Shown: positions 3,471 to 61,308, counted from the stretch's first letter. The stretch: DNA of 64,000 nt from Candidatus Magasanikiibacteriota bacterium (GCA_041665405.1 JBAYIZ010000006.1:407-64406), one strand, 5' to 3'. Numbers and translations: made by a program. Notes: generated by a model not told the origin, from the letters alone.

Positions 3471-3900
3471 TTAATTTTTTTAATATGTCCATCGGTTTTT
3501 CTTTGTGCAAATTTCCCAAATAAACACACTTTATTTTTTTAACAAGCACAGCTGGTAATGTTTTTTTAATATCCAACATGATTTCGGTTGGAGCAAACAA
3601 ATACACCGCACTAAATTTTTGTTCACCAGATATTTGTTTCACAAAGTCTTTAACCAAAACTAGAAAATCGCTATGTTTTGATCTCTTCATTTTTTCTATC
3701 TTTGAGCCAGATTCAAACACCAATGATCCACGTCTGCCAAAGTTTTCACGATCAGAATAATGGCTTTTTAATAAAGTGACCTGCCCCGCTTGCGCAATCT
3801 CTCCTTCGCTGGCGATATAAAAATTTGCCGCTTGAGTACCTGATACTACCAATAAGGCACTTTCATTTATAAACTGATGTAATTGTGCTGAAATTTTCAT
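3451..3900 (-). CDS. hypothetical protein (149 aa)
   Basis: Complete ORF; no confident family assignment from the sequence. Confidence 0.45.
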   Translation of the reverse strand: MKISAQLHQFINESALLVVSGTQAANFYIASEGEIAQAGQVTLLKSHYSDRENFGRRGSLVFESGSKIEKMKRSKHSDFLVLVKDFVKQISGEQKFSAVYLFAPTEIMLDIKKTLPAVLVKKIKCVYLGNLHKEKPMDILKKLKKKPLK

Positions 3901-9554: not shown

Positions 9555-10769
9555 TTAAAAATTTATAAATTCTTTAAACCTATCTTCAAAAATAGCTTGC
9601 CGTGCCTGACGCATAAGCTCCAACATAAAATGCACATTATGGATGGTAGCCAAACGCAAACCAGTAATTTCTTGTGCTACAAATAAATGGTGTAAATAAG
9701 CGCGAGAATAATTTTTGCAAGTTGAACAAGCGCAGTCTTTACTAATTGGAGAAAAATCTTTGATAAACGCGGAGTTTTTTATATTCAAACGACGTTTCGG
9801 GTCCTCGGCAGTCGTAACAAACAACATACCGTGTCGAGCCAAACGAGTTGGTGCTACACAATCAAACATATCCGCACCACCAGCTACCACTTTGAGCAAA
9901 TCCTCTGGATCCAAACCGACACCCATAGTGTATCGTGGCTTATCTTTTGGTAATAATGGAGTAATCCAATCCAAAATATTTTTGGTAGCTTCCATGTTGT
10001 AGCCAATGCTTTCACCGCCAATTGCGATACCATCAAAATCTAAACTGGCAATATATTTAGCCGATTCTTTGCGCAGATCTTCATGATTGGCACCCTGAAT
10101 AATACCAAATAAAAATTGTTTGTATTCTTTCGGCACTGTCATCCCCGACTTGATCGGGGATCTATCATCACTAGATTCCCGCTTCTGCGGGAATGACAAA
10201 CGCTTATGTTCGTCCACACATCTTTTTGCCCAGCGATGAGTGCGATCCATAGCTTCCTTTGTATATTTATAATCTGCATCATCAGGGGTACATTCATCAA
10301 AAGCCATAATAATATCCGCACCAATCTTGTGTTGGCACAAAGTAGCGGACTCTGGTGTAAAACGATGAGTAGAGCCGTCAATATGAGATTGAAATGTCAC
10401 GCCGTCTTCATCTATTTTTACCAATTTACCTTGATCTTTGGTGTCGCTTTTTTCTTTTTGCAATCCTAATGAAAAAACCTGAAAACCACCAGAATCAGTC
10501 AAAATCGCCCGGTCCCAATTCATAAATTTGTGCAAACCACCAGATTGAGCAACCAAATCTTCACCCGGTCTCAAATGCAAATGATAGTTATTGGCCAAGA
10601 TAATTTTTGGGTCCAAAATAGCTAGGTCGTTTTGATCTAGGGTTTTAACTGTGGCCTGTGTGCCAACTGGCATAAAGACCGGAGTTTCAATATCTCCATG
10701 GTCGGTATGCAAAATACCGGCTCTGGCACCAGTTTTTTTATCTTCGTGGATTAGTTCAAAAAATGACAT
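9555..10769 (-). CDS. tgt: queuine tRNA-ribosyltransferase (tRNA-guanine transglycosylase) carrying an in-frame 57-nt palindromic-element insertion
   Basis: Tgt hallmarks: MSFFELIHEDKKTGARAG, DSGGFQVFSL, and the zinc site CACSTC...H. An extra segment SFPQKRESSDDRSPIKSGM is encoded by the palindromic repeat at 10141-10200. Confidence 0.9.
   Translation of the reverse strand: MSFFELIHEDKKTGARAGILHTDHGDIETPVFMPVGTQATVKTLDQNDLAILDPKIILANNYHLHLRPGEDLVAQSGGLHKFMNWDRAILTDSGGFQVFSLGLQKEKSDTKDQGKLVKIDEDGVTFQSHIDGSTHRFTPESATLCQHKIGADIIMAFDECTPDDADYKYTKEAMDRTHRWAKRCVDEHKRLSFPQKRESSDDRSPIKSGMTVPKEYKQFLFGIIQGANHEDLRKESAKYIASLDFDGIAIGGESIGYNMEATKNILDWITPLLPKDKPRYTMGVGLDPEDLLKVVAGGADMFDCVAPTRLARHGMLFVTTAEDPKRRLNIKNSAFIKDFSPISKDCACSTCKNYSRAYLHHLFVAQEITGLRLATIHNVHFMLELMRQARQAIFEDRFKEFINF
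10141..10200. repeat. palindromic repeat element R1 copy a (two hairpins: ATCCCCGA...TCGGGGAT and ATTCCCGC...GCGGGAATGACA), in-frame inside tgt
   Basis: The GGATTCCCG-loop-CGGGAATGACA family is also at 11917-11945, 39021-39070 and 44707-44733. Local GC is far above the flanking tgt sequence. Confidence 0.7.
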
Positions 10770-11678: not shown

Positions 11679-13715
11679 ATGATAAATTTTGAACAAGAAC
11701 TCAACCCGCAACAGCTGGACGTCGTGAAAAATGGCGACGGGCCTTGTTTGGTTTTAGCTGGGGCGGGATCGGGGAAAACTCGCACTATTACTTATCGGGT
11801 TGCCTATTTGTTGGAACAAGGTGTTGGCCCAGAAAATATTTTGTTGGTAACTTTTACCAATCGAGCGGCGAATGAAATGATTGAACGGGTAAGAAATTTG
11901 ATGAGTGGGGATTCCCGTTTGCACGGGAATGACATGCCGTGGTCAGGAACATTTCACCACATTGCCAATAAAATTTTACGACACTACGCACCACATTTAG
12001 GATACAAAAATAATTTTACTGTTTTGGATTCCGACGACAGCCAGGCGTTGATAAAATTGTGTATCAAAGAATTTAAAACCACCGAAAAATTTCCTTCGGC
12101 GAAAGTTGTGGGCGCAATTATTAGTTTTGCTCGTAATTCTCAAAAAAGTATTGAAGAAGTAATTGAAGATAAATTTAATAGCTGGTGGCACCTGTCTAGA
12201 ACTATTGGCGATGTCAGCTCACGATACGAACAAAAGAAAAAAGAATCCAACGCAATGGATTTTGATGATCTACTAATTAATTTTGCATTGTTATTAAACA
12301 CCCCAGCAATTCAAGAAAAGTTTTCCAATCAATTCAAATATATTTTGGTAGATGAGTATCAAGACACCAACAAACTACAAGCGAATATTATTGATAAATT
12401 AGCCAAAATACACCGTAATTTGTTGGTAGTTGGTGATGACGCCCAAAGTATTTATTCTTTCCGTGCGGCTGATATAAAAAATATTTTAAATTTTGAAGAA
12501 AAATATTCTGATGCGAAAATTTTTCGTTTGGAAATAAATTATCGTTCTCACCAAGAAATTTTGTCTTTGGCCAATAATGTTATCGCCAACAATCGTCATC
12601 AATATCCAAAAAAATTAAAAGCAGTAAAAGAAAATGGCATAAAACCAAATTTATATCCAAAAAATGATCAATCCGACGAAGCGAGTTTTATTGTAAAAAA
12701 AATAAATGAACTGATTGAACAAGGAACTCCAGAACACAAAATCGCTGTGCTGTTTCGTGCCGCTCATCATTCTCAAATGCTCGAAATGGAATTAGCCAAA
12801 GCAGGAATCGCTTATGATTATCGTGGCGGTTTGCGATTTTTTGAACGCGCTCACATCAAAGATGTTTTGAGTTATCTCAGAATATTAAATAATTTATCTG
12901 ACACCTCTGCGTGGTTGCGTATTCTCCAACACGAAGAAGGAATCGGACCGTCGGCTGCCAATAAAATTATTTCTGCCGTGCAAAAACTAGAAAAAATTGA
13001 TGACATAAAAAATCTTGGGGAAGTTTTAGGTGGAAAAACCCAAACCGGTTTTAATAATTTCTTAAAAATTTTTAATGCTCTCTTGGAATCGTATATTCCA
13101 GAAAGCAGCCCTGGTGATTTAATCCAATCCATTATCAGTTCGAATTATAGCGACTATTTGGAAGCAGAATTCATAGATAGTGATGACCGAAAAAAGGATT
13201 TGGAACAAATGGCCACCTTTGCCACCAAACACAAAAATTTATCTGATTTTTTGGCCGAATCTAGTTTGCAAGAGTCGTTTGCCCACCCGACATCCAACCA
13301 AACACAGACAAACAACCAAAAAAGGTTGGTGCTTTCCACTATTCATCAGGCCAAAGGACTGGAGTGGGAAGCGGTTTTTATAATCAATGTAGCCAACGAC
13401 GCCTTTCCCAACAGTCGTGCTTTGGCCGAAAGTGAAGGTCTGGAAGAAGAACGCCGTTTGTTTTATGTCGCTATTACTCGTGCCAAAAAACACTTAATTT
13501 TGACTTATCCAATGTCAAATGAGGGTTGGGGCTCCTCGCTGGGCGGTCCAAGCTTGTTTTTGTCTGAAATTAGCCAAGATTTGATTGATGACCACTCATT
13601 ATTATCCTATAAAAGCACTGTTTTTGATAAAAATGAAGAAATTCAATATATTAACGAAGATGAACCAATAAATATCCAACCTGGTAGTTTTTTGCGCAGT
13701 ATTGATGACTTATAA
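11679..13715 (+). CDS. UvrD/PcrA-family ATP-dependent DNA helicase carrying an in-frame palindromic-element insertion
   Basis: Walker A LVLAGAGSGKTRTITYR, helicase motifs through TIHQAKGLEWEAVF. The extra SGDSRLHGNDM near GTFHHIANKIL is encoded by repeat R1 at 11917-11945. Confidence 0.9.
   Translation: MINFEQELNPQQLDVVKNGDGPCLVLAGAGSGKTRTITYRVAYLLEQGVGPENILLVTFTNRAANEMIERVRNLMSGDSRLHGNDMPWSGTFHHIANKILRHYAPHLGYKNNFTVLDSDDSQALIKLCIKEFKTTEKFPSAKVVGAIISFARNSQKSIEEVIEDKFNSWWHLSRTIGDVSSRYEQKKKESNAMDFDDLLINFALLLNTPAIQEKFSNQFKYILVDEYQDTNKLQANIIDKLAKIHRNLLVVGDDAQSIYSFRAADIKNILNFEEKYSDAKIFRLEINYRSHQEILSLANNVIANNRHQYPKKLKAVKENGIKPNLYPKNDQSDEASFIVKKINELIEQGTPEHKIAVLFRAAHHSQMLEMELAKAGIAYDYRGGLRFFERAHIKDVLSYLRILNNLSDTSAWLRILQHEEGIGPSAANKIISAVQKLEKIDDIKNLGEVLGGKTQTGFNNFLKIFNALLESYIPESSPGDLIQSIISSNYSDYLEAEFIDSDDRKKDLEQMATFATKHKNLSDFLAESSLQESFAHPTSNQTQTNNQKRLVLSTIHQAKGLEWEAVFIINVANDAFPNSRALAESEGLEEERRLFYVAITRAKKHLILTYPMSNEGWGSSLGGPSLFLSEISQDLIDDHSLLSYKSTVFDKNEEIQYINEDEPINIQPGSFLRSIDDL
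11917..11945. repeat. palindromic repeat element R1 copy b (GGGATTCCCGTTTGCACGGGAATGACA) in-frame inside uvrD/pcrA
   Basis: Same ATTCCCG...CGGGAATGACA inverted-repeat motif as in tgt and two intergenic sites. Confidence 0.7.
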
Positions 13716-14210: not shown

Positions 14211-15863
14211 ATGCAACTCGACGACAACAAAATTGAGAAAATTTTGCTTGACGGCAGTTATATTTCGGCGGATGACCTGAAAAAAGCACAACAATACGCC
14301 AAAGAGCATCATGCTACTTCATTGGTTTATTTACAAAACGAAGGGCTTATTAATCGCAATCTTTTGGGACAAGCAATTGCTGAATCACTTAATGTTGATT
14401 ACGCATCACTACCCGCACAACAACCAACCAAAGAACAAGTTTTGAAAATTCCCGAAGATATTGCCAACAAATATCATATTGTTTTATTTAAAGAAACACC
14501 AAAAGAAGTAGTTGTTGCTACCGACGATCCTGCGGCCACAGATTTATCCAAAGCATTAAAACAAATTTTCAAAACTCAAAAAATTTCTCTGGCTTATTCA
14601 TTGCCCGAAGATATTGATACTGCTTTTATTGCTTACCGCAAAACTTTGGAAACTCGTTTTGGTGATATTATAAAAAAACAAGAACACATTGCTCCGGAAA
14701 TTATTGATGAAATTATTGAAGATGCGATTGCCTACCACGCCTCGGATATTCACTTTGAACCACAAAGTAAAGAAGTGGTAATTCGTTTTCGTGTAGACGG
14801 CGTACTCAACGAAGCCGGCCGTATTCCCAAGGAATATTTTGGCAATGTTTTGAATCGTATCAAGGTACAATCACATTTACCGATCGATGAACATTATTCT
14901 GCTCAAGATGGGGCGATGCGTTTTGTCAAAGAAAACATGACGGCTGATTTGCGCGTGTCTATTTTGCCAACCTTGGACGGAGAAAAAGTGGTAATGCGTT
15001 TGTTGTCTCAATATGTGCGTGGTTTCAATTTACCGGATTTAGGATTATCGCCAGAAAATGAAATACTGTTAGAAAAAGCATACAAAAAACCGTTTGGGAT
15101 GATACTCATTACTGGCCCAACTGGCTCTGGAAAGACCACTTCTCTGTATGCACTACTTCGCATTTTGAATACTCCCAATGTAAACATCACCACCATTGAA
15201 GACCCGGTAGAATATCGAGTAGAAGGTATAAACCAAATTCAGGTTAACCCCAAAACCAATCTCACTTTTGCTGGCGGACTGCGTTCGATTGTACGCCAAG
15301 ATCCAGATATTATTTTGGTTGGTGAAATCCGCGACAATGAAACCGCTGAAATTGCCATCAATGCTTCACTCACAGGTCATTTATTATTATCCACTTTCCA
15401 TGCCAATGATTCTGCTACCGCTGTCCCGCGTTTACTCGACATGAAAATTGAACCATTCTTGTTGGCTTCAACTTTAGAATTACTTATCGCCCAGCGTTTG
15501 GTAAGAAAAATTTGTGAACAATGCAAAGTAAGTTCGGTGATAAAACAAATTGATATCAAAAAAACCGTGCCGGAATTAGCGAGAAAATATTTTACCGGCA
15601 AATCATATACTTTTTATAAAGGTAAAGGTTGTAGCGCGTGTGGCAATACTGGTTACAAAGGACGCCAAGCAATTTTTGAATTTATTCCCATCTCTCCGGA
15701 AATGAAAGAATTAATCTTAAAAAATCCTTCCACTCAAGAAATTTGGAAGGTTGCTCGCAAACAAGGATCAAAAACTTTGTTTGAAGATGGTTTAGAAAAA
15801 GTAAAAAACGGCATCACCACATTACAAGAATTATTACGCGTTGCAGAACCACCAAAATTTTAA
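14211..15863 (+). CDS. pilB: type IV pilus assembly ATPase PilB/GspE family
   Basis: N-terminal GSPII_E_N-like domain. Walker A ILITGPTGSGKTTSLYA, Asp box, Walker B, tetracysteine CEQCK...CSACGNTGYKGR. Confidence 0.9.
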   Translation: MQLDDNKIEKILLDGSYISADDLKKAQQYAKEHHATSLVYLQNEGLINRNLLGQAIAESLNVDYASLPAQQPTKEQVLKIPEDIANKYHIVLFKETPKEVVVATDDPAATDLSKALKQIFKTQKISLAYSLPEDIDTAFIAYRKTLETRFGDIIKKQEHIAPEIIDEIIEDAIAYHASDIHFEPQSKEVVIRFRVDGVLNEAGRIPKEYFGNVLNRIKVQSHLPIDEHYSAQDGAMRFVKENMTADLRVSILPTLDGEKVVMRLLSQYVRGFNLPDLGLSPENEILLEKAYKKPFGMILITGPTGSGKTTSLYALLRILNTPNVNITTIEDPVEYRVEGINQIQVNPKTNLTFAGGLRSIVRQDPDIILVGEIRDNETAEIAINASLTGHLLLSTFHANDSATAVPRLLDMKIEPFLLASTLELLIAQRLVRKICEQCKVSSVIKQIDIKKTVPELARKYFTGKSYTFYKGKGCSACGNTGYKGRQAIFEFIPISPEMKELILKNPSTQEIWKVARKQGSKTLFEDGLEKVKNGITTLQELLRVAEPPKF

Positions 15864-24669: not shown

Positions 24670-25146
24670 ATGAGAGGAAAGCAATCAAAACAACGAGTTA
24701 TTGCTCCGGATCCAAAATATGGAAGCGTATTGGTGGCTAAATTCACCAACTTCTTGATGGAACGAGGCAAGAAATCAGTGGCTCAAGATATTTTTTATTC
24801 TGCTATGGATAAAATCGCTACTGATACAAAGAAAGATCCAATCAAAATTTTTGAAGAGGCAATCAATGTCATCCGCCCACAGGTAGAGGTTCGTTCTCGC
24901 CGTGTTGGTGGTGCCAACTACCAAGTACCACTTCCAGTTCGTGGTGAACGTCAAAATGCTTTGGCTTTCCGCTGGATTATCGGTGCTGCTCGCAACAAAA
25001 AAGGCCAACCAATGTTCCAAAAGCTTGCAACTGTATTAATGGATGCTCAACAAAATACTGGTGATGCCGTAAAGAAACGCGATGACGTACATCGCATGGC
25101 CGAAGCCAACAAGGCTTTTGCGCATTTCGCACGCTTTGCTAAATAA
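24670..25146 (+). CDS. rpsG: 30S ribosomal protein S7
   Basis: C-terminus KKRDDVHRMAEANKAFAHF matches S7 closely. Confidence 0.95.
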   Translation: MRGKQSKQRVIAPDPKYGSVLVAKFTNFLMERGKKSVAQDIFYSAMDKIATDTKKDPIKIFEEAINVIRPQVEVRSRRVGGANYQVPLPVRGERQNALAFRWIIGAARNKKGQPMFQKLATVLMDAQQNTGDAVKKRDDVHRMAEANKAFAHFARFAK

Positions 25147-25155
25147 AAATTCCGC

Positions 25156-25240
25156 AAAGGGTAACTTTTTCGCTTTTTTTGCCCGCGAGGGCAAAAGGAT
25201 GAGCCTCGGCTCATAACCCGCTCAAAAGTAACCCTTTGCT
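25156..25240 (+). ncRNA. structured repeat R2 copy A: conserved 54-nt core (CGCUUUUUUUGCCCGCGAGGGCAAAAGGAUGAGCCUCGGCUCAUAACCCGCUC) closed by a copy-specific outer stem
   Basis: The core recurs at 38665-38718 and 48363-48415 with compensatory changes in two internal hairpins (GNRA loop GCGA; tetraloop CUCG/CGCG). The outer stem here is GGGUAAC.../...GUAACCC. Confidence 0.55.
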
Positions 25241-25266
25241 CCATTTTAAATTAACATAACAAACTT

Positions 25267-27342
25267 ATGCCTCGTGAATATTCACTAGACAAAACACGTA
25301 ACATTGGTATTGCAGCTCACATCGACGCTGGTAAAACAACCACCACAGAACGTGTGCTTTTTTATACCGGTAAAAAACACAAAATTGGTGAGGTGCACGA
25401 AGGTGCCGCTGAAATGGACTGGATGGAACAAGAAAAAGAACGTGGTATTACTATTACTTCTGCCGCCACTACTTGTTTCTGGAAAGATCACCGCATCAAC
25501 ATCATCGACACTCCTGGACACGTAGACTTTACCGTAGAAGTAGAGCGCTCTTTGCGCGTGCTTGACGGTGCTGTCGCTGTGTTTGATGGATCTCAAGGTG
25601 TAGAACCACAGTCTGAAACTGTGTGGCACCAAGCTGACAAATATAATGTACCTCGCGTTCCTTTTATTAATAAAATGGATAAGTTGGGTGCAGATTTTTA
25701 TATGTGCATGGACTCAATCCATGAGCGTTTATCAAAAAACGCCTACGCCATTCAGTTACCACTTGGCGCTGATAGTACTTTTGAAGGTTTGATTGATGTG
25801 ATCGAAAGCAAAGCTTACCATTTCGAAGGAAAAAATGGTGAAATTGTTGTTGAGATTCCAATTCCAGCCGACATGGTAGAAAAAGTAAAAGAATATCGCA
25901 CAAAGTTGGTAGAAAAAGTTTCAGAGGCTAGTGACGAATTGATGGAAAAGTATTTGAATGGTCAAGAACTATCTGTCGACGAAATCAAAAAAGCTATCCG
26001 CACTTTAACTTTGAAAAATTTATTGTACCCAGTTATCTGTGGTTCTGCTTTGGCAAACATCGGCGTCCAATTTATGTTGGATGCAGTTGTAAGTTATTTG
26101 CCAGCCCCAACAGATTTGCCTCCAACCAAAGGTATTAATCCTGACACTGATGCTGAAGAAGTTCGCAATCCATCTGATGACGAGCCTTTCTCCGCTTTGG
26201 CTTTCAAGATCATGACCGATCCTTTTGTTGGTAAGTTGGTTTTCTTCCGCGTATACTCAGGACATGTTTCTGCTGGCAGTTATTTGCACAACGCTACAAC
26301 TGGCGAACGCAGTCGTTTGGGTCGCATTGTTCGTATGCATGCCAATCACCGTGAAGATGTGACTGACGTTTACTCTGGTGAAATTGCAGCTGCCATCGGT
26401 CTCAAGGATGTCACTACTGGCGATACTCTTTGTGACGAAGAACATCCAATCGTCTTAGAAAAAATTATCTTCCCAGAACCAGTTATTTCTGTGGCTATCG
26501 AACCAAAAACAAAACAGGACCAAGAGCGTATTGGTATGGCTATGCAGAAATTGGCTGAAGAAGACCCAACCTTCCGCATCAAGACTGATGAAGAAACTTT
26601 GCAAACCATTATTTCCGGCATGGGCGAGTTGCATTTGGACATTATCGTGGATCGCATGAAACGCGAGTTCAAGGTAGAAGCCAATGTTGGTGCCCCTCAG
26701 GTTGCCTACAAAGAAACTATCCGCACTACTGCCGAAGCTGAAGGAAAATACATCAAACAGTCTGGTGGTAAGGGTCAATTTGGCCATTGTTATCTCACTG
26801 TTGAGCCCCAAGAAGCTGGCAAAGGATTCGAGTTTGTCGATGAAATCAAAGGCGGAACAATTCCTCGTGAATTTATCCCTGCCATTGAAAAAGGTGTTAA
26901 AGAATCCCTAACTCGCGGTATTCAAGCTGGTTACCCGGTAGTAGACATCAAAGTAACTGTTACTGATGGCTCATACCATGAGGTGGATTCCTCTGAAATG
27001 GCTTTCAAAATGGCCGGATCGATGGCTTTCCAGACAGCTTGTAAAAAGGCCAACCCGGTGATTATGGAGCCTATTATGAAAGTCGAGGTAGTTACCCCAG
27101 AACAATATATGGGTGACTGCATCGGCGACTTAAACAGTAAACGTGGCCAAATACAAGAAATGTTTGACCGTGGCCAGATGAAGGTTGTGAAGGCAATGGT
27201 GCCTCTTGCGTCCATGTTTGGCTATGTCACCTCTTTGCGCTCTATGTCACAAGGTCGCGCTAGTTCCTCTATGGAATTCGATCACTATGCAGATGTTCCA
27301 GGTAATGTGGCTCAAAACATTGTCGCTGGAAAACAGAAATAA
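25267..27342 (+). CDS. fusA: elongation factor G
   Basis: G1 [18 protein letters not shown]; 691 aa. Confidence 0.95.
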
Positions 27343-27392: not shown

Positions 27393-27419
27393 GTTTATCA
27401 AACAATGATAATTACTAAA

Positions 27420-27443
27420 TTTGTATACACTAGTCTATACAAA
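27420..27443. repeat. 24-bp near-palindrome TTTGTATACACTAGTCTATACAAA (left inverted repeat)
   Basis: The exact reverse complement recurs at 27544-27567. The two brackets enclose about 100 bp containing two hairpins. Confidence 0.7.
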
Positions 27444-27543
27444 AGTGGATAAGTGTGTGCACAACTCCACTCTTGTGTGTATAACTTTTAACTGTTCGCC
27501 TTCTTAGCCACCCTTTTCTTGGCTAACCACAAAAGAAACTCTG

Positions 27544-27567
27544 TTTGTATAGACTAGTGTATACAAA
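27544..27567. repeat. 24-bp near-palindrome TTTGTATAGACTAGTGTATACAAA (right inverted repeat, exact RC of 27420-27443)
   Basis: Perfect 24/24 match to the reverse complement of the left copy. Confidence 0.7.
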
Positions 27568-27570
27568 TGG

Positions 27571-35047: not shown

Positions 35048-36172
35048 TTATTGTCTTATCGGCATCACTATATAAACAAAACTGTCGTCGTTGGTTGGTA
35101 CAAAGAGACACGGGCTGTCTGCGTTTATCATTTTCAGCATACTGGTTTCTGATTTAATATTATTTAAACCATCCAAAACATATCGGTGGTTCAACATAAT
35201 AGCATTGTCGTCGCCGTTTGTTTCCGCACTTATTTCAGAACTATATTCACCCGTCTGGGAAGAAGTGGAGGAAAGTTTTACGACGCCTTCTTTACTACTA
35301 ATTATACAAGATATAGCGTTTACACCTATTGTGGTAAACAAACTGGCCATTTTAATTTCTTTACTCATCTTTCCAGTATCAAACATCGCAGATGTTTTGA
35401 ATTCTTTTGGTATAATTTGTGCATAGTCTGGATAATTTCCTTCTACTAAGCGAGAAACTAGTTGAATATTACCGTAGTGCATAGCAATTTGATTCTCTCC
35501 AACTAATATTCTAACGTTTTTTTCTTTTTCTTCATTATCCGCTAACGACAGTATGTGGATTATTTCTTGAGCAGTTCTACCCGGAACAATAATTTTAAAA
35601 TCTCCTTCTCCTTGTTGAATTTTAATTTTCTTTTCAGCCAATCTATAACTATCTGTAGCCGCCAATATTAAACCGGCATAATATGAAGTATTAAATCCAA
35701 AATACATTCCTGATAATTCCGGTCTTATTTCTGATTTAGCCAAAGAGGAAACAGTTTGTCCTAGTCCGCTCTTTAGTTGTTCTGCATCAAACAAAAATCC
35801 ATTTCCATCACTTACAGAAGGAATAACTGGAAATTCGTCAGCTGGTATTCCTTTTATTTTCGTTGATGATTTTCCACAGGTTATAACTAGCTCATTTTCT
35901 TTTAATTCCATTTCAATCTTTTCGTCAGAAAGTAAACTAACAAATTCACTAAGTGTTTTGGAAGGAACTGTAAACGAACCAGATTCATCCACTTTTGATC
36001 TCACGTGAGCAACTATTGCCAATTCTAGATTGGTTGCAATTATTTCTGTTTTTTGATCATCTGCTTTAATCAATATATTTCCCAGTATTGGAAGATTCAC
36101 ATTTTTATTTGCTATCCCTCCTACTATAGAAAGTGCTTTCGATAAATTATCTTTTGTACAAGTTATTTTCAT
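35048..36172 (-). CDS. dnaN: DNA polymerase III beta sliding clamp
   Basis: Three-domain clamp, 374 aa, immediately downstream of dnaA. Confidence 0.9.
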   Translation of the reverse strand: MKITCTKDNLSKALSIVGGIANKNVNLPILGNILIKADDQKTEIIATNLELAIVAHVRSKVDESGSFTVPSKTLSEFVSLLSDEKIEMELKENELVITCGKSSTKIKGIPADEFPVIPSVSDGNGFLFDAEQLKSGLGQTVSSLAKSEIRPELSGMYFGFNTSYYAGLILAATDSYRLAEKKIKIQQGEGDFKIIVPGRTAQEIIHILSLADNEEKEKNVRILVGENQIAMHYGNIQLVSRLVEGNYPDYAQIIPKEFKTSAMFDTGKMSKEIKMASLFTTIGVNAISCIISSKEGVVKLSSTSSQTGEYSSEISAETNGDDNAIMLNHRYVLDGLNNIKSETSMLKMINADSPCLFVPTNDDSFVYIVMPIRQ

Positions 36173-36447
36173 AAAGGATGGTGCGGGTTACATTATTTAA
36201 TTAAGTATATATATAAAATAATAATAGTAATAAGGCTGTGGAAAGGGTTAATAAGTCGTTTTTTGTTTTCAAATTAGCCAAGTTTAAGGTGAATAATTTT
36301 TTAACAGTTTGGTATAAAAGTGTGTGTGAAAAACGATTTATTTAAGTTTATTTATTTTCTGTTGATAAGTGGTTGACTTGTTCTTTTTATATTAACAACT
36401 TATTAACATTCTTTGCACACCATTTAGCGAAGAAAAAAAACCATGTT
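36173..36447. other. dnaA-dnaN intergenic region, probable oriC segment with AT-rich unwinding element
   Basis: Very AT-rich tract TATATATATAAAATAATAATAGTAATAA plus a DnaA-box-like TGTTGATAA. Confidence 0.4.
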
Positions 36448-37842
36448 TTAGATATTATTGATATATAAACGCTGTCTTATTAATTCTAGTTCTTGTTTTA
36501 GTTTTAAATCATTATCTATTTCTTTGGTAATTTTTTCGTTGGCATGCATCGCTGTGGTGTGATCGCGTCCGCCCAGCTCATCGCCAATGGAAGGGAAAGA
36601 CATTTTAAGATCATTACGCAAAATATACATAATAATCTGGCGAGGATAAGAGAGCTTCTTTTCTCGGCTTTTACCACAAACATTTTCGGTGGAAACATTG
36701 AAAAAGGTGCAAACAGTCTCTATGGTCTGTTGTGATGTGACTGAACGTCTAGCCGAAGCAGAATCAAAACTAGAAAGAATTGATTTTACTGATTCGGCTG
36801 TCGGGGCCATATTTTTTAATTGATGATAAGCAATAATTTTATTTAGGGCGCCTTCAAGCTCACGAATGTTGCTCTGAACAATAGTAGCAACTGTATTTAG
36901 GGTTTTGTCGTCCAAAACAAAATTCTTTTCTTGGCACTTTTTGCCCAAAATAGCGACACGTGTTTCAAAATCAGGGGCAGAAACATCCACAATCATTCCC
37001 CACTCGAAGCGAGATTTGAGGCGATCCTCAAGGGCAGGGATGGCTTTTGGTGGGCGGTCAGAAGTTAAAATTACCTGCTTGTTTGCCTGGTGGAGCTCGT
37101 TAAAAGTATGAAAAAACGATTCTTGGCTGGCATCTTTGCCAGCGATGAACTGAATATCATCAATTAACAAAGCGTCGATAGTACGATAGCGGTTTTGGAA
37201 GTCTCTCGCTCCACCACTACGCAAAGAAGTAATAAAATCGTTGGTAAATTTCTCAGCACTAACATACAAGATATTGGTTTGAGGGTTTTTTTTCAACAAT
37301 TCATTGCCAACCGCCTGTAAAAGATGGGTTTTCCCCAAACCTACACCACCGTAGATAAACAGTGGATTGTAGGCCTCACCAGGACGGTCTGCCACTGCCT
37401 TGGCGGCGGTGAAAGCCAATTCGGAGCCTTTGCCAACCACAAAACTATCAAAATTGTATTTTGGGTTAATGGTAAATCCATGAGAAGCGACAGATTGGTG
37501 ACTAGTTTGTTGAGAGTATGAAGGTGTTTTTTCGTTTTCATGAGATACCGACGGGGAAGGAGGGGTGTTTATTGGTTGTTCCACAACATTTTTGATATTT
37601 TCGATCTTGTATTCCATCCTTCTAATAGGAAGGGCGGTGACCCTCTCTAAAGATTGGATGATTTGGTGGTGGTGTTTTTTTTCAATCCACGCCTGATTAA
37701 AGGTGTTTGGGACGCAGACAATAACATGGCCTTCTTGAAAACTAACAATACCAGTATTTTTGAACCAGGTGTTAAAATTCGCTTTGGAAATGGTTAATTC
37801 TAATTCAGATAAAACAGCCTGCCAAATTTCATTATTAGTCAT
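36448..37842 (-). CDS. dnaA: chromosomal replication initiator DnaA
   Basis: Walker A GGVGLGKTHLL and the C-terminal DNA-binding domain. Confidence 0.95.
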   Translation of the reverse strand: MTNNEIWQAVLSELELTISKANFNTWFKNTGIVSFQEGHVIVCVPNTFNQAWIEKKHHHQIIQSLERVTALPIRRMEYKIENIKNVVEQPINTPPSPSVSHENEKTPSYSQQTSHQSVASHGFTINPKYNFDSFVVGKGSELAFTAAKAVADRPGEAYNPLFIYGGVGLGKTHLLQAVGNELLKKNPQTNILYVSAEKFTNDFITSLRSGGARDFQNRYRTIDALLIDDIQFIAGKDASQESFFHTFNELHQANKQVILTSDRPPKAIPALEDRLKSRFEWGMIVDVSAPDFETRVAILGKKCQEKNFVLDDKTLNTVATIVQSNIRELEGALNKIIAYHQLKNMAPTAESVKSILSSFDSASARRSVTSQQTIETVCTFFNVSTENVCGKSREKKLSYPRQIIMYILRNDLKMSFPSIGDELGGRDHTTAMHANEKITKEIDNDLKLKQELELIRQRLYINNI

Positions 37843-38017
37843 AGATTGATAGTTTTATAAAACTTTTATGTTATTTTAGCACAGAAACACATCTATTAAA
37901 ACGTCGGAAATTAGCTAAAAGTGCAAAATATGTGGATAAACTGGGGATACTGTGGATTGTTGACTAAAAGCCGTTTATATGGTAATATATTCAACATAAT
38001 ACATTAAATAAAAAGGT
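37843..38017. promoter_or_regulatory. dnaA upstream region with DnaA boxes (TGTGGATAA at 37931-37939; TGTGGATTG at 37951-37959) and a divergent rpmH promoter TTGACT-17-TAATAT
   Basis: A perfect TTATCCACA (on the opposite strand) plus a 1-mismatch box; classic oriC/dnaA promoter arrangement. Confidence 0.5.
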
Positions 38018-38197
38018 ATGGCAACTAAACGAACTTATCAACCAAGTAAAAAACATCGTGCAAAAGCACACGGATTCATGGAAAGAATGTCCACAAAGAA
38101 TGGACGGACAGTACTTTCTAGACGTCGTGCCAAGGGGCGCAAGAAGCTAACAGTGTCAGATGAAAAATCTGGAAAATTGTTAAGAAAAGCCAAATAA
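38018..38197 (+). CDS. rpmH: 50S ribosomal protein L34
   Basis: Own translation: [46 protein letters not shown]... (59 aa, below the ORF-track cutoff). RBS AAAAGGT. Confidence 0.85.
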
Positions 38198-38202
38198 TCT
38201 TA

Positions 38203-38231
38203 AACCCCCGATTGAATCGGGGTTTTTATTT
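38203..38231 (+). terminator. intrinsic terminator after rpmH (AAACCCCCGATTGAATCGGGGGTTTTT)
   Basis: 8-bp GC stem plus T-run. Confidence 0.7.
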
Positions 38232-38245
38232 GGTATAATATTGTT

Positions 38246-38641
38246 ATGTATAGAAAAGAAAACCATTTGACCAAGGTGCGAGATTTCAATCTCGTTTTAA
38301 AACAAGGATATTGGATAAATGATCTGTTTTTTAGTTTAAAAGTATTAGACTTAGCCAAAAAAGAGGCTTATTTTCCACCCAAAGAAGATAAGGATAAGTT
38401 CAAAAAACAGCTTAAGTTAGCGGTGAATGTTGGGTTAAAGGTGTCTAAAAGTGCTGTTGTGCGCAATCGGGCAAAAAGGCAGGTTGTGGAGGTGTTGAGG
38501 GCGATGATGGCCAAAGATGAAATATTGGAAGGGTATTATTTGTTTTTTGTGGCGAAGCCGAATATCAAGGAGAAAAGTTTTGCTGAGATAAGCGATGAAG
38601 TGAAACTATTATTGCAAAAGGCAAACGTGCTAAAGAGGTAA
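38246..38641 (+). CDS. rnpA: ribonuclease P protein component
   Basis: Basic protein with RNR motif VVRNRAKRQVVEV; conserved rpmH-rnpA synteny. Confidence 0.85.
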   Translation: MYRKENHLTKVRDFNLVLKQGYWINDLFFSLKVLDLAKKEAYFPPKEDKDKFKKQLKLAVNVGLKVSKSAVVRNRAKRQVVEVLRAMMAKDEILEGYYLFFVAKPNIKEKSFAEISDEVKLLLQKANVLKR

Positions 38642-38743
38642 TTTAAAAAACTTTTATTTTATTTCGCTTTTTTTGCCCGCGAGGGCAAAAGGATGAAGCC
38701 GCGGCTTCATAACCCGCTCAATTAAAATAAAAGTTTTTTAAAT
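38640..38743 (+). ncRNA. structured repeat R2 copy B filling the whole rnpA-yidD spacer
   Basis: Same core as 25171-25224, with a compensatory extra A-U pair in hairpin 2 (AUGAAGC-CGCG-GCUUCAU). It sits inside a 22-bp AT-rich outer stem (AATTTAAAAAACTTTTATTTTA.../...TAAAATAAAAGTTTTTTAAATT) that reaches the yidD start. Confidence 0.55.
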
Positions 38744-38744
38744 T

Positions 38745-39020
38745 ATGCCTAAAAACCTTCTTTATTACATTAAACAAGCAACTATATTTTTGGGAATGCC
38801 GATTGTTTTTTTGATTTGGGTTTATCAAAAAACATTTTCGCCGGATCATGGGCCGTTGAAAAGATTTTTTCCTTATGGGTATTGTCGGTTTTATCCTAGT
38901 TGTAGTGAATATGGAAAACAATCTATAAAAAAACACGGCCTGTTTGTTGGAACAATCAAGGCCGGGTGGAGATTGCTAAGATGTAATCCATGGAATAAAG
39001 GGGGGATGGATTTGCCGTGA
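38745..39020 (+). CDS. yidD: membrane protein insertion efficiency factor YidD
   Basis: YQKTFSPDHGPLKRFFPYGYCRFYPSCSEYGKQSIKKHG; conserved Cys pair. Confidence 0.85.
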   Translation: MPKNLLYYIKQATIFLGMPIVFLIWVYQKTFSPDHGPLKRFFPYGYCRFYPSCSEYGKQSIKKHGLFVGTIKAGWRLLRCNPWNKGGMDLP

Positions 39021-44706: not shown

Positions 44707-44733
44707 GGATTCCCGCTTTCGCGGGAATGACAA
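44707..44733. repeat. palindromic repeat element R1 copy d (GGATTCCCGCTTTCGCGGGAATGACAA)
   Basis: Lies between the hppA stop and its terminator. It is translated in a spurious ORF as IPAFAGMTT. Confidence 0.65.
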
Positions 44734-48313: not shown

Positions 48314-48341
48314 CGAAATAGCAGTAGTGCTGTAGAACAAA

Positions 48342-48443
48342 CATCCCAGACAATGACTTTTTCGCTTTTTTCGACCGCGAGGTCGAAAGGATGAGCCTCG
48401 GCTCATAACCCGCTCAAAAGTAATTGTCTGGGATGTTTTTTTG
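48342..48443 (+). ncRNA. structured repeat R2 copy C immediately 3' of tRNA-Cys; outer stem + T7 acts as an intrinsic terminator
   Basis: Core 48363-48415 has compensatory hairpin-1 changes (CGACC-GCGA-GGUCG versus GCCC-GCGA-GGGC). It lies inside a 16-bp stem CATCCCAGACAATGAC/GTAATTGTCTGGGATG followed by TTTTTTT. Confidence 0.55.
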
Positions 48444-48453
48444 TACCATAAAA

Positions 48454-48482
48454 TTGACTTTGTGTTTTTTATCAAGTAAAAT
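48454..48482 (+). promoter_or_regulatory. promoter TTGACT-17-TAAAAT reading into GC island 4
   Basis: AT-rich host-type promoter; the GC-rich leader begins directly after the -10. Confidence 0.45.
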
Positions 48483-48576
48483 ATTTTTGTGTCCCAAACG
48501 ACCGACGGTTCGCCGTTCGGTCACAACGACCACTTGCACCGCTCATCGGTGGTGGTCTCGAAAAGGAGAGAGAGCC

Positions 48577-48798
48577 ATGCGTGTGCTTCCCTCGATCCTG
48601 AACCAGAGCCGGAGACGGAGCGACAATTCCGCCGATTGCGGGCAGGTCGCGAGCTCCGAGGCCGACTTCATCCACAGGCAACTGCTCGAGCATGGCTTCT
48701 GCTCGGACATGAAGGAGGGCGCCGTCGGCACCGCCAACATGGTCGGCATCGTCTGTTCGACCGCGGCCGGCCGCGGAGCAGTAGTCCTCCTGGTGTAG
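48577..48798 (+). CDS. small GC-rich protein (73 aa), hypothetical; GC island 4
   Basis: Strong SD AAAGGAGAGAG-5-ATG. About 65% GC with high GC3. Sequence MRVLPSILNQSRRRSDNSADCGQVASSEADFIHRQLLEHGFCSDMKEGAVGTANMVGIVCSTAAGRGAVVLLV. The longer overlapping track ORFs are GC artefacts. Confidence 0.5.
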   Translation: MRVLPSILNQSRRRSDNSADCGQVASSEADFIHRQLLEHGFCSDMKEGAVGTANMVGIVCSTAAGRGAVVLLV

Positions 48799-48827
48799 GG
48801 CTCAGCTTCGTACGAGACAACCAGTGC

Positions 48828-48881
48828 GGCCGGACCGGGAGCTCCTTCGGGGGTTTCTGGTCCGGCCGTCGTTTCCTTTTT
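48828..48881 (+). terminator. GC-rich intrinsic terminator of island 4 (GGCCGGACC...GGTCCGGCC + T-run)
   Basis: 9-bp GC stem enclosing a second hairpin, followed by TTTCCTTTTTATT. Confidence 0.6.
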
Positions 48882-48962
48882 ATTATATTTAATACTCAAA
48901 GCGGGTATTTTTTTATTGCTCAAAAAAGGGTTTGCGTGTAAAATAAGAACGAATAATATTTT

Positions 48963-51638
48963 ATGTCAAAATTTGTAATTATTGATGGGAACGCTATTGT
49001 GCATCGTGCTTATCACGCTTTGCCTCCGATGAACACCAAAGACGGGGTGATGGTGAATGCGGTGTATGGATTTACTTCCATGTTGCTCAAGGTTTGGAAA
49101 GATTTGAGGCCCACGCATTTGTGTGTGAGTTTTGATGTGGCCGGTGGGACTTTTCGTCATGAGAAATTTGAGCAATACAAAGGTACGCGCGTGAAGGCGG
49201 ATCAGGAATTGTATGATCAGATGCCTTTGGTGCATGAAGTGGTGGAGGCGTTTAGTATTCCGATTTATGAAATGAAAGGGTATGAGGCGGATGATGTGAT
49301 TGGAACTGTGGTGCGTAGGATTGAAAACGAAGTGGACGAGGTGTATATTGTGACGGGTGATATGGACACCCTGCAATTGGTGGATGAAAAAATAAAAGTT
49401 TATACTTTGCGCAAAGGCATGAGCGATATTGTGATATATAATCCAGAAGAAGTAAAAAAGCGTTTTGGTTTTGGACCGGAATTGGTAATAGATTACAAAG
49501 CTTTGCGCGGAGATCCTTCGGATAATATTCCGGGGGTGCCTGGAATTGGTGAAAAAACAGCGACGGATTTGATTTTGAAATTTGGTGATTTGAAAGAAAT
49601 ATATAAAGTGGTAAACGCAGAAAAAGATAAAAAGAAAAGTGATTTATTTAGTTCGTCGGTTTTGAATAAATTATCGCAGGGTGAAAAAAGTGCACAGATG
49701 AGTTATGAATTGGCGACGATAGATTGTGCCGTACCGGGTTTGAATTTTAGTTTGGAAAATTGTGCGATGAGTGAATTTGATCATGATAAAATTTTGAAAT
49801 TATTTCAGAAATTTGAGTTTGTGTCTTTGATGAAACGGATTCCTGGGTTTGATAAGTATGATGTGGTGGAACCAGAAAAAACTACGACAGTAAAAAGCAA
49901 GAAAATGGCTGAATTAAATTTTAAAGAACTAGGGAATAAAAGCGAGGCAAAAGAATTGGTGGAGAAAATAAAAAAGAACGGGCAGTTTGCCTGTCGGGCG
50001 GCGATGAGTGGGAAAGATGTTTTGACCAGTGACTTTTTTGGGTTGGTGGTGATTGTGGAAAGTGAAGGGTATTTTGTTAAAAATAATTTGGTGGAAGAAT
50101 TTTTGCCGATTTTTGACGATGAAAAAATTGAATTGGTGGGGCATGATTTGAAACAATTGGTGAAGGTTTTATTATTGCAAAAACAGGAAATAAAAAACTC
50201 TTTGTTTGATGTAATGGTGGGGTCGTATCTGCTCAACCCAGGCAGTCGTGCTCATGATAGTGCCAGTGTGGTGTTGAAAATATTGGATAAAGAATTAAAG
50301 GTGGGTAGTGGGCAAGAAAGTTTATTCGGGGTAGATGCAAAAGCGTTGGCGGCGGAGTTATATTTAATATTACAAACTGTTGAAAAAATTAAAACTGAAT
50401 TGAACAAGACAGATAATTTGGGTTTGTTACAAAAAATAGAAATGCCGTTACTTTTGGTGTTGGCACAGATGGAATTAAATGGGATTGCGGTGGATTTGGA
50501 GATGCTCCAAAAATTATCGGTAGAAGTAAATGATAGTATTAAAAAAGTTTCCAAAAAGATTTTTGATTTAGCCGGAATGGAATTTAATATTTCTTCACCG
50601 TTGCAATTGAGGGAAGTATTATTTGAAAAACTGGATATTCCTGTCGAGGGAATAAAAAAAGGCAAGACCGGTTTATCTACTTCGGCTGAACAATTGGAAA
50701 AAATGCACGGGCTACATCCGATTATTAAAGAAATTGAAATTTATCGTGAGTTGGCTAAATTGCAAAATACTTATGTGGACGTATTACCGACTTTGATTAA
50801 TAAAAAAACAGGACGAATTCACACCACCTTTAATCAGGCGGTGACGGCCACCGGCAGGCTGTCTAGTTCTGAACCGAATTTACAGAACATTCCAATTCGT
50901 ACCGAGATCGGTCGTGAAGTGCGCAAGGCGTTTGTGTCTGAAAAGGGTAACGTGTTGATTAGTGCAGATTACTCACAGATTGAATTGCGAATTGTGGCTT
51001 CGATGGCGCAAGACAAACGGATGATGGAAATTTTTGAAAAAGATTTAGATATTCATAGAGCCACAGCGGCGGCGATCAATGGAGTTCCGCTAGAAGAAGT
51101 CACCAAAGAAATGCGTCGCGCGGCCAAAGAAATTAATTTTGGTGTGTTGTATGGTATGGGAACATACGGTCTAAGTTGGCGCGCGGAAATTTCTCATGCT
51201 CAGGCGAAAGAATTTATCCAAAAATATTTTGAACAATTTAGCGGGGTAAAGCAGTATATAGATCAGACATTGGAATTCACTAAGACAGAAGGATATTGTG
51301 AAACGCTATTTGGGCGCCGAAGATATTTGCCAGAATTGAGATCACAAAATTTTCAGATGCGCAGTGCGGCCGAACGCATGGCGATTAACCACCCTATCCA
51401 AGGCACAGCTGCCGATCTGATCAAGATGGCGATGATTGAAGTGGGAAAAAAATTGAAAGAATATCCAGAGGTAAGAATGCTTTTGCAAGTACACGACGAA
51501 TTGGTGTTAGAAGTGAAAAAAGGTGAAGAAGAAAAGATCGGCAAGATTCTCAAAGAGACGATGGAAAATGTGGTGAAGCTGAGGGTGCCGGTAAAGGTAG
51601 AGGTGAACATCGGACATAGTTGGGGGGAGATGAAATAA
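48963..51638 (+). CDS. polA: DNA polymerase I
   Basis: N-terminal 5'-3' exonuclease (FEN) domain. Pol A motifs DYSQIELR, RRAAKEINFGVLYG, HDELV. Confidence 0.9.
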   Translation: MSKFVIIDGNAIVHRAYHALPPMNTKDGVMVNAVYGFTSMLLKVWKDLRPTHLCVSFDVAGGTFRHEKFEQYKGTRVKADQELYDQMPLVHEVVEAFSIPIYEMKGYEADDVIGTVVRRIENEVDEVYIVTGDMDTLQLVDEKIKVYTLRKGMSDIVIYNPEEVKKRFGFGPELVIDYKALRGDPSDNIPGVPGIGEKTATDLILKFGDLKEIYKVVNAEKDKKKSDLFSSSVLNKLSQGEKSAQMSYELATIDCAVPGLNFSLENCAMSEFDHDKILKLFQKFEFVSLMKRIPGFDKYDVVEPEKTTTVKSKKMAELNFKELGNKSEAKELVEKIKKNGQFACRAAMSGKDVLTSDFFGLVVIVESEGYFVKNNLVEEFLPIFDDEKIELVGHDLKQLVKVLLLQKQEIKNSLFDVMVGSYLLNPGSRAHDSASVVLKILDKELKVGSGQESLFGVDAKALAAELYLILQTVEKIKTELNKTDNLGLLQKIEMPLLLVLAQMELNGIAVDLEMLQKLSVEVNDSIKKVSKKIFDLAGMEFNISSPLQLREVLFEKLDIPVEGIKKGKTGLSTSAEQLEKMHGLHPIIKEIEIYRELAKLQNTYVDVLPTLINKKTGRIHTTFNQAVTATGRLSSSEPNLQNIPIRTEIGREVRKAFVSEKGNVLISADYSQIELRIVASMAQDKRMMEIFEKDLDIHRATAAAINGVPLEEVTKEMRRAAKEINFGVLYGMGTYGLSWRAEISHAQAKEFIQKYFEQFSGVKQYIDQTLEFTKTEGYCETLFGRRRYLPELRSQNFQMRSAAERMAINHPIQGTAADLIKMAMIEVGKKLKEYPEVRMLLQVHDELVLEVKKGEEEKIGKILKETMENVVKLRVPVKVEVNIGHSWGEMK

Positions 51639-51683
51639 AATTAAAAAAATCGACCACACAAAGTAGTCGGTTTTTTTGTTTGT

Positions 51684-56220: not shown

Positions 56221-56226
56221 TTAAAA

Positions 56227-56260
56227 CAAAAAACCGATTGCAATATGCAGTCGGTTTTTT
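56227..56260 (+). terminator. conserved intrinsic terminator AAAAAACCGATTGCAATATGCAGTCGGTTTTTTT (family shared by TrmB paralogs)
   Basis: 8-bp stem with a G-U pair plus T-run. Near-identical copies at 61128-61162 and 63041-63076. Confidence 0.65.
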
Positions 56261-56269
56261 TAGTTTATT

Positions 56270-61118: not shown

Positions 61119-61127
61119 AATTTAAAA

Positions 61128-61162
61128 ACAAAAAACCGATTGCAGATTGCAGTCGGTTTTTT
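61128..61162 (+). terminator. conserved TrmB-paralog terminator AAAAAACCGATTGCAGATTGCAGTCGGTTTTTT
   Basis: Same family as 56227 and 63041. Confidence 0.65.
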
Positions 61163-61308
61163 GATAACTTCTTGAGCTCAACAAGATGTTGGAGTGAATG
61201 AGCGGTCACTACCAGCCGCGTGACTTTTTGTTTTACCGGTAGTCACAAACCGGATGATCCCAGACCCCTCATCAGCGGACCATTGAATTGTCCTGAAACT
61301 TTGCACCT

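Follow-up and report, generated by a model that had tools for sequence, protein, structure and literature searches.

In a 64,000-nucleotide (nt) stretch of DNA from a Candidatus Magasanikiibacteriota bacterium (GCA_041665405.1 JBAYIZ010000006.1:407-64406; hereafter, the window), a structured repeat that we call R2 occurs in three copies, and we found that these belong to a family of small structured cassettes at the tips of long locus-specific hairpins, mostly transcription terminators, in Magasanikbacteria. The family is previously undescribed. We lean, by a little, towards the view that R2 is a non-autonomous cassette that is recognised in folded single-stranded form and occupies the tips of hairpins and terminators. 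A sequence-only reading of the window had offered a mini mobile element targeting hairpin loops or terminators as one interpretation, and this is the one favoured by gain and loss of the cassette, by its flips and swaps on conserved arms and by its enrichment at gene 3′ ends. The same reading had placed three copies on the plus strand, as we also found, but its core of roughly 54 nt was too short: the conserved unit is a core of 56–58 nt (TTCGC...GCTCA) plus about 9 semi-conserved outer-stem pairs on each side.

The family was collected by a pattern scan of 185,579 species-representative genomes in which only the unpaired segments were fixed. At least 109 loci matched; among the matches listed, at least 93 are true family copies in 13 metagenome-assembled genomes (MAGs), with up to at least 20 copies per genome, and the other listed matches are chance matches in unrelated phyla. 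The MAGs are labelled Candidatus Magasanikbacteria, Patescibacteria or, mistakenly, ‘uncultured Gammaproteobacteria’. We built a covariance model from 102 aligned family members; the counts of copies, arms and orientations below likewise refer to the matches listed. In the window, this model found exactly three copies and nothing else (84–101 bits, E 1e-22 to 1e-27), copy A scoring 100.8 bits (25157–25236), copy B 84.1 and copy C 99.9, and with its filters off it found no degenerate copies there. The pattern GGATGA-N6-14-TCATAACCCGC, which covers hairpin 2 and the 3′ tail, matched the window three times and did not match any of 100 shuffles. The density of unselected copies was taken from DNA fetched for another reason (three fusA loci and the window, 126.6 kb in total), in which the covariance model found six full copies and one long form, or about one per 18–21 kb; the L111 fusA locus had zero copies (sampled sequences are cited by L numbers).

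Searches against Rfam 15 at gathering thresholds returned only two tRNAs in the whole window. At E values of up to 10, no family or ribozyme class was matched by positions 25100–25300, with twister, twister-sister, pistol, hatchet, HDV-like and hairpin ribozymes included; the best sub-threshold match was CRISPR-DR57, at 20.5 bits against a gathering threshold of 39, on the minus strand and over a single hairpin only. The sequence-only reading had allowed that R2 might shrink to an ordinary repeat, one without further covarying copies and with a good match to a known Rfam family; what we found was at least 93 copies and no Rfam match. Phage and plasmid collections gave no family match, and a hit in the viral contig L001 was a chance match to the loose pattern. 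A search of the literature on repeats in the Candidate Phyla Radiation (CPR), on terminator-inserted miniature inverted-repeat transposable elements (MITEs) and on repetitive extragenic palindromes (REPs) in CPR bacteria found nothing relevant.

The core runs from TTCGC and six or seven U residues through hairpin 1 (GCGA loop), GG and hairpin 2 (CUYG-type loop) to AACCCGCUCA. Each copy in the window folds as a three-way junction closed by a long outer stem, with a GCGA loop on hairpin 1 and CTCG or CGCG on hairpin 2, and the folding-energy z-scores of the three copies range from -6.4 to -9.0. The inner hairpins are perfect palindromes and the core ends, TTCGC and GCTCA, are not inverted repeats of each other; hairpin 1 begins about 8 nt from the left end, and the foot of hairpin 2 lies 10 nt from the right end. 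Read on the plus strand, the junctions are UUCGCUUU, GG and AACCCGCUCA; on the minus strand they are UGAGCGGGUU, CC and AAAGCGAA. Among the 102 aligned members, TTCGC with its T-run, the CC-GCGA-GG tip, AAAGG-ATGA and TCAT-AACCCGCTCA are nearly or fully invariant, and three pairs of hairpin 1, two pairs of hairpin 2 and all twelve scored pairs of the outer stem are variable but paired.

The compensatory differences first noticed between the window copies are real in both hairpins, hairpin 1 being UGCCC/GGGCA in A and B and CGACC/GGUCG in C, and hairpin 2 being AUGAGC/GCUCAU in A and C and AUGAAGC/GCUUCAU in B, and such differences are overwhelming in the roughly 100 aligned relatives. In the 102 copies, the three variable pairs of hairpin 1 were CG 51, UA 32 and GC 12; GC 77 and AU 24; and CG 59, GC 23, AU 15 and UA 4. 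Paired cells made up 90.3% of this alignment compared with 73.8% in shuffles, cells with both sides changed numbered 543 compared with 171, none of 500 shuffles reached any of five pairing measures, and slid-register controls were only 38–56% paired. At least 18 fully compensated variants of hairpin 1 occur while the junction bases stay invariant. A second subfamily, variant 2, has the form TTCGCTTTCCTC...TCAGGGATGA..., and a long form carries a nested insertion of 72 nt, GCACGAGTCATGAGACAAGTATTAATTTATTAATACTTGCGAGTGACGAAGTGGTTATCTGTGAAACTAGAT, after CTCATAA in the core, bounded by ATAA repeats. The insertion lies at L102:243-314 and at L112:19999-20068, in copies that differ in locus, arms and hairpin-1 type, and it was not found elsewhere in the sampled DNA.

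Comparisons within and between genomes show that the outer arms are part of the locus and pass down with it vertically. Among 38 within-genome pairs with cores at least 98% identical, the outer arms were no more alike than the unrelated background, and among six identical cores in JBAYGI even outer pairs 1–5 differ. Orthologous copies agreed at 7.6 of 12 arm positions, compared with 5.7 of 12 for paralogues; they were found between rnpA and yidD in at least 6 genomes (the window and at least 5 other species) and at tRNA-Cys in at least 5. Close relatives show compensated arm changes, from T-A to A-T between L020 and L035 and at two pairs between L050 and L110. Position-specific bias was present only in the first 9 outer-stem pairs (RRTNAYYTT on the left, AARRNAAYY on the right), and beyond position 9 from the core there was no sequence information, with about 90% pairing to about position 18. 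Total arm length had a median of 22 nt and a maximum of 37 nt, and perfect arms of up to 25–37 bp pair right up to the core. Position 1 was Watson–Crick in 75 of 76 copies; position 6 was so in only 34 of 76, with a conserved A at positions 6–7 on the 3′ side, and 27 of 103 family members carry a bulged T on that side after two pairs. On the left flank, T occupies position -1 in 67 and position -2 in 68 of 76 copies, and a pyrimidine lies at -3 and -4; CAC, GAC, TTG, CTC and TAT were seen as well. The core flanks are inverted complements of each other, and no direct target duplication was found. Outside the arms, a TC...TC pair was present in 24 of 93 copies, for which stop codons and A/T tracts provide at least part of the explanation. 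In these genomes, native terminators already come with complementary A and T tracts and a stem of 9–15 pairs, so that an outer arm resembles such a terminator lengthened by the inner stem.

Comparisons of orthologous loci further show that, independently of the arms, cassettes come and go, invert and are replaced by cassettes of another subfamily. The rpsG–fusA spacer is 120 nt long in the window, with a forward copy, and 141 nt long in L112, L080 and L096, with a reverse copy on other arms; it is empty and has no hairpin in L111 (38 nt) and L114 (20 nt). The lspA–comM spacer measures 98 nt in L112, where it is filled, compared with 2–6 nt in three relatives, and several further pairs of filled and empty orthologous sites were found. 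At the tRNA-Cys locus, the empty allele in L126 reads CCCGCGTCAA abutting ATCGTCGCGGG and the filled allele in L127 reads CCCGCGTCAA-TAATGACCTT, the core, and then AAGGTAATT-ATTGACGCGGG, so that what sets the two apart, within an orthologous terminator stem, is the core together with its 9-nt inner arms. Other empty tRNA-Cys alleles are ordinary small terminators, for example ATCCCTT-TCA-AAGGGAT followed by a T-tract. We set aside one apparent parallel, between the empty terminator of L069 (CCTT-TCA-AAGG) and the inner arms of L042, because four base pairs are too short to interpret. At one orthologous locus that has kept its arms (..CGACCGGTAACTTT/AAAGTAACCGGTCG..), L067 and L055 hold a forward core of the main type and L053 holds a reverse core of variant 2, the A.A mismatch at position 6 having flipped together with the core; the core of L049 is flipped relative to L053 and L055. 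The cassette is also homogenised within genomes. Cores were identical in 5.8% of pairs of paralogues, in 2.4% of pairs of orthologues and in 1.0% of pairs of unrelated copies, and the 14 typed copies in JBAYGI have only 2 hairpin-1 types, where the orthologues of these loci have others.

Copies are enriched at the 3′ ends of genes. Among those between genes, 26 lie in convergent and 8 in divergent spacers; in co-directional spacers, 38 are sense and 22 antisense (22 of 60, 37% antisense), the antisense copies including those inside the rpsG–fusA and lspA–comM operons of L112. A tract of at least five T residues follows the 3′ arm in 22 of the 38 sense copies, 20 of the 26 convergent copies and 8 of the 22 antisense copies. 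For a terminator, the 56-nt branched apex is atypical, the usual loop having 3–8 nt. Candidate promoters split by the hairpin (TTTACG...TATAAT flanks in L021, L091, L095 and L106) were rejected because of their unsuitable spacing. In three JBAYGI contigs, the copies of each contig are oriented +, -, +. In the window, the cumulative GC-skew minimum lies at about 36 kb, with copy A on one side and copies B and C on the other, and all three copies are on the same strand, following their genes. The window probably contains the replication origin: dnaN (-) and dnaA (-) followed by rnpA–yidD (+) occupy 35048–38641, and the rpsL–rpsG–fusA block at 24–27 kb points towards this region. The shared orientation on both sides of the dnaA/dnaN region speaks weakly, with n = 3, against a replication bias.

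How such a cassette could come to sit on arms that are not its own can be pictured as follows. R2 would be a mobile or copy-driven element that does not encode its own enzyme, and an enzyme acting in trans would recognise the folded single strand, most likely as single-stranded DNA (ssDNA), as in systems of the IS200/IS605 or REP/RAYT type. The target would be the single-stranded tip of an extruded hairpin with the apical pairs YYTT/AARR, and since a palindrome carries YYTT/AARR on each of its strands, the cassette could go in either way round. After insertion, the inner stem of the cassette would stack on the resident stem and the terminator would keep working; we propose that insertions at terminators are tolerated for this reason.

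A number of observations weigh against this picture. A transposase or other multi-copy open reading frame was not present in the roughly 0.9 Mb sampled, nor was any full-length element found with a gene between its two hairpins, and a search for half-elements (a lone left or right end that could bracket a gene) turned up nothing beyond full copies of variant type and chance matches in T-rich sequence. When outer-arm sequences were joined to look for empty sites, only generic terminators came back, and near-identical strains sought by exact RpsG protein carried only the same filled allele; with no empty site from a near-identical strain, the exact boundaries and the mechanism are deduced from diverged orthologues. 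The arms, too, are missing from the empty site in most filled/empty pairs, which fits movement of the whole hairpin or deletion of a palindrome. Flips could arise without transposition by inversion between the arms, and swaps and homogenisation could likewise result from gene conversion between cores. The unpaired bases are invariant at orthologous loci whose flanking genes are only 75–85% identical, which could reflect selection at the level of the host. Orientation is mixed within contigs and the same across the dnaA region, unlike that of the usual IS200/IS605 elements. Finally, the mild sense bias and the loops of the plus strand, which are stable tetraloops of the kinds well known from RNA, GNRA (GCGA) and UUCG/CUUG/CUCG-like, point to RNA.

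The last two observations belong with an RNA explanation, in which R2 is a functional module at terminator tips: the three-way junction would form, once transcribed, the structure at the 3′ terminus of mRNAs and precursor tRNAs, a protein or another RNA would bind to its invariant junction bases, and the long variable outer stem would be P1. Protection or processing of 3′ ends, release of a small RNA by RNase III and a new small self-cleaving ribozyme are examples of what such a module might do. We regard this explanation as unlikely. In its favour are the stems that covary around invariant junction bases, the plus-strand loops, the enrichment at gene 3′ ends with a T-tract after most sense and convergent copies, the excess of sense over antisense copies (38 versus 22) and long retention at the same locus (rnpA–yidD in at least six species, tRNA-Cys in at least five). 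The covariance model, too, scores the plus strand at 84–101 bits compared with 17 bits for the reverse strand, and in place of the invariant U.G pairs at the foot of hairpin 1 the second subfamily has C-G, a change that fits the plus strand only. The sequence-only reading had taken covariation of this kind as the mark of a functional RNA rather than a DNA repeat, but abundant compensatory change alone does not prove RNA function, and the details of the pairing do not bear that conclusion out. At the three variable hairpin-1 pairs, 0 of 306 cells are G-U despite many CG-to-UA transitions, and no strongly covarying pair shows a G-U intermediate. Single mismatches in the inner hairpins have no strand bias (G.U-type about 8 versus about 7 between the strands, counted by eye from copy listings), so A.C occurs as often as G.U on the plus strand. 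In the arms, mismatches on the core strand were of A.C type in 31 cases and of G.T type in 8, regardless of gene orientation (about 100 members); no explanation that we considered accounts for this asymmetry, which if anything favours the opposite strand. Adding to this, 37% of co-directional copies are antisense, among them those within the rpsG–fusA and lspA–comM operons; orientation flips between orthologues; and the Rfam search to E values of 10 matched no ribozyme class. Strict Watson–Crick pairing, antisense copies and flips and swaps on kept arms argue against a simple sense-strand RNA gene. An RNA role may exist, but it is not what the pattern of pairing and orientation shows.

Two further explanations also work at the level of DNA. 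R2 could be an ancient, immobile resident element, REP-like in structure and kept for a function in the DNA of the host, such as forming a cruciform or binding a protein of the nucleoid or of DNA topology; its flips would then be recombination between arms and its core identity gene conversion. Vertically inherited arms, homogenised cores, strictly Watson–Crick pairing and a seemingly free orientation all agree with this, and inverted repeats are known substrates for inversion. However, the unit is missing from many orthologous spacers of close relatives, some only 2–38 nt long, so that new loci do arise; putting a variant-2 core in place of a main-type one on identical arms would need conversion across about 40 nt of heterology with about 15–23 nt of flanking homology; and the element is confined to one lineage. 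We consider a resident element quite improbable. Alternatively, the whole hairpin, arms and core, might move, with the act of insertion creating the arms; snap-back copying of one flank, starting from the short inner stem, is one way in which this could happen, and it would leave a perfect inverted target duplication. This would agree with empty sites that are without both arms in most filled/empty pairs, with perfect arms of up to 25–37 bp that reach the core with position 1 almost always Watson–Crick (75 of 76), with one L112 arm that overlaps the last codons of lspA, and with the A-tract of filled tRNA-Cys loci, which mirrors the native T-tract and has no counterpart at the empty loci. Yet L126 and L127 share outer-stem sequence on both sides, and native terminators already carry complementary A and T tracts. 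The C terminus of L112 LspA is not conserved in relatives, which shows this arm to be non-native and so counts against arms made at insertion, and we know of no precedent for an arm-copying mechanism of the snap-back kind. Movement of the whole hairpin appears very improbable to us.

We return to the reading that we favour, a mobile cassette at hairpin tips, with the individual copies in the window. As had been described, each copy sits in the loop of an outer stem of its own, directly 3′ of rpsG, rnpA and tRNA-Cys, respectively; the stems measure 15 bp (A), 24/25 nt (B) and 22 bp (C), are near-perfect and are unrelated to one another, and the protein-coding neighbours were confirmed by Pfam (S7 for rpsG, Ribonuclease_P for rnpA). 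Copies A and C are 94% identical over 68 nt by a direct-repeat finder. Copy A lies in the rpsG–fusA spacer. Its 5′ outer arm GCAAAGGGTAACTTT (25154–25168, plus strand, as are all features listed here) pairs with the 3′ outer arm AAAGTAACCCTTTGC (25225–25239) with one A.A mismatch at the conserved position 6. Between them, the core (25169–25224) consists of TTCGC and the T-run, hairpin 1 (25178–25196, with its GCGA loop at 25185–25188), GG, hairpin 2 (25199–25214, CTCG loop) and then AACCCGCTCA. Copy B, between rnpA and the downstream yidD, has its 5′ outer arm at 38639–38662, its core at 38663–38720, with a hairpin 2 of 7 bp (ATGAAGC CGCG GCTTCAT), and its 3′ outer arm at 38721–38745, with a bulged T after 2 bp. 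Copy C has its 5′ outer arm at 48339–48360, its core at 48361–48416, with the CGACC/GGTCG variant of hairpin 1, and its 3′ outer arm at 48417–48438, which runs into a T7 tract (48436–48442). At the 3′ ends of their genes, copies C (T7) and B (T6) have a hairpin with a T/U tract right behind it, as in an intrinsic terminator; copy A does not, having no T-tract directly 3′ of its arm. The 3′ arm and T7 tract of copy C look like the intrinsic terminator of tRNA-Cys, in agreement with the terminator that had been recognised there.

Beside copy C, between it and the polA promoter, lies a GC-rich segment of about 450 nt (48445–48900), the GC content of 48440–48965 being 53% compared with a window mean of about 38%. 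This segment contains a GC-rich hairpin of 20 bp (48826–48869) and is preceded by a promoter-like TTGACT-17-TAAAAT at 48454–48482; it has no Rfam match, is absent from the orthologous tRNA-Cys–polA spacers of L042, L069 and L027, and may represent foreign DNA or hold an RNA or small gene that has escaped recognition. A perfect inverted repeat of 25 nt, ATTTGTATACACTAGTCTATACAAA and TTTGTATAGACTAGTGTATACAAAT, encloses 100 nt just beyond the fusA terminator (27419–27568); with a related palindrome, TTTGTATACAATAGTGTATACAAAT, in L034 near 4100, it looks like another repeat family. The window also holds four near-identical bidirectional terminators of the form AAAAAACCGATTGCA-nnn-TGCAGTCGGTTTTTT (51637–51689, 56221–56273, 61123–61175 and 63035–63087); the same stem recurs in another genome, in L042 near 665, which makes this a multi-copy family of terminators with conserved arms and a varying loop, the opposite of R2. 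A small hairpin repeat, GATTCCCGC-NNNN-GCGGGAATGACAA, occurs at 10174–10199, 11910–11935, 15683–15708 and 44708–44733 and also in L094 near 466–528 and in L015 downstream of its R2 copy. In L094 it fills the exact spacer in which the orthologue L021 has an R2 unit, which suggests that it is a second small mobile hairpin that shares insertion hot spots. A terminator-like hairpin AAAACCGCCTG...CAGGCGGTTTTT at L026:2941-3010 and at about 3630–3700 carries a different nested hairpin, GTCTAAAAGTTCAAATGTTTGAACGCTTAGAC, in its loop, and this may be another tip-resident element.

CPR bacteria (Patescibacteria) have very small genomes, in which repeats and mobile DNA are thought to be scarce, and a family of about 50 copies per Mb across many species is therefore notable for their genome biology. 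The architecture of R2, an invariant and strictly Watson–Crick two-hairpin centre on unique arms, is the inverse of that of REPs and MITEs and suggests that hairpin tips are read and rewritten by some process; an enzyme behind the family, if there is one, would be structure-guided and specific for such tips. We think it rather unlikely that R2 embodies either a new mobility mechanism, in which a non-coding 56-nt unit, folded in single-stranded nucleic acid into a three-way junction, is inserted, excised and inverted at hairpin tips by a CPR enzyme, or a new class of catalytic or protein-recruiting RNA embedded in terminators. In practical terms, the element marks terminators and operon boundaries in uncultivated Magasanikbacteria, and the 102-sequence alignment and covariance model could seed an entry in Rfam or in a mobile-element collection.

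When compared with known systems, the family lacks a defining feature of the Rfam families, of the hammerhead, of MITEs and of REPs. Three-way-junction ribozymes such as the hammerhead and twister-sister resemble R2 in being multi-copy junctions with variable stems and invariant junction bases, but the orientation of R2 is not tied to transcription and it matches no ribozyme in Rfam. It is not a hammerhead, as had been noted before: neither strand has the CUGAUGA and GAAA core. Correia/NEMIS, ERIC, RUP and BOX elements are likewise intergenic repeats of about 100 nt that form long hairpins when transcribed and can add terminators or RNase III sites. MITEs of the Correia/ERIC type have conserved terminal inverted repeats and TA-like duplications, whereas R2 has locus-unique arms and no direct repeat; with no information in the arms past position 9 and only a weakly conserved inner stem of 9 nt, it has no terminal inverted repeats in the MITE sense. 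REP, BIME and REPIN sequences resemble R2 as extragenic repeats, short and palindromic, that number in the tens per genome, lie at the 3′ ends of genes and persist over long times by vertical inheritance; REPs can act as terminators or mRNA stabilisers. In REPs, however, the arms are conserved and the loop varies, whereas in R2 the centre is conserved and the arms are locus-specific, and a 5′ tetranucleotide of the GTAG type is not found in this family, nor was a RAYT gene identified, no search aimed at it having been made.

R2 shares most with miniature elements of the IS200/IS605 type and with elements that target the centres of palindromes. Among the latter, IS1397 and ISKpn1 insert into the centres of REPs or palindromic units, and IS1111-type elements insert into attC or REP sequences, so that, as proposed for R2, the target is a hairpin centre and not a plain sequence. 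These insertion sequences are full-length, carry their own transposase and use one repeat family, whereas R2 is a non-coding unit of 56–75 nt on many unrelated hairpins. Palindrome-associated transposable elements (PATEs) of the IS200/IS605 type are small, have a hairpin near each end and lack terminal inverted repeats and target duplication, as R2 does, and their recognition by structure would explain the strict Watson–Crick covariation seen here. PATEs are moved as ssDNA by a Y1 HUH transposase (no TnpA was found here, where no search aimed at it was made), and R2 differs from them in that its flank preference is loose, its target is the dyad of a palindrome and its orientation relative to replication is mixed. 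IS608 has subterminal hairpins, has no inverted repeats or duplication, inserts 3′ of a short target and ends on the right 10 nt past the foot of its hairpin (PMC3201880). A short sequence, though only loosely preferred, lies 5′ of the left end of R2 (YYTT, compared with TTAC in IS608). The two differ in that the hairpins of R2 are perfect and those of IS608 carry an extrahelical base, and in that the left hairpin lies about 8 nt from the left end in R2 and 19 nt in IS608. The right end, by contrast, lies 10 nt beyond the foot of the right hairpin in both (PMC3201880), and by analogy single-strand transposition by the TnpA of IS200/IS605 elements would be the closest mechanistic counterpart of R2.

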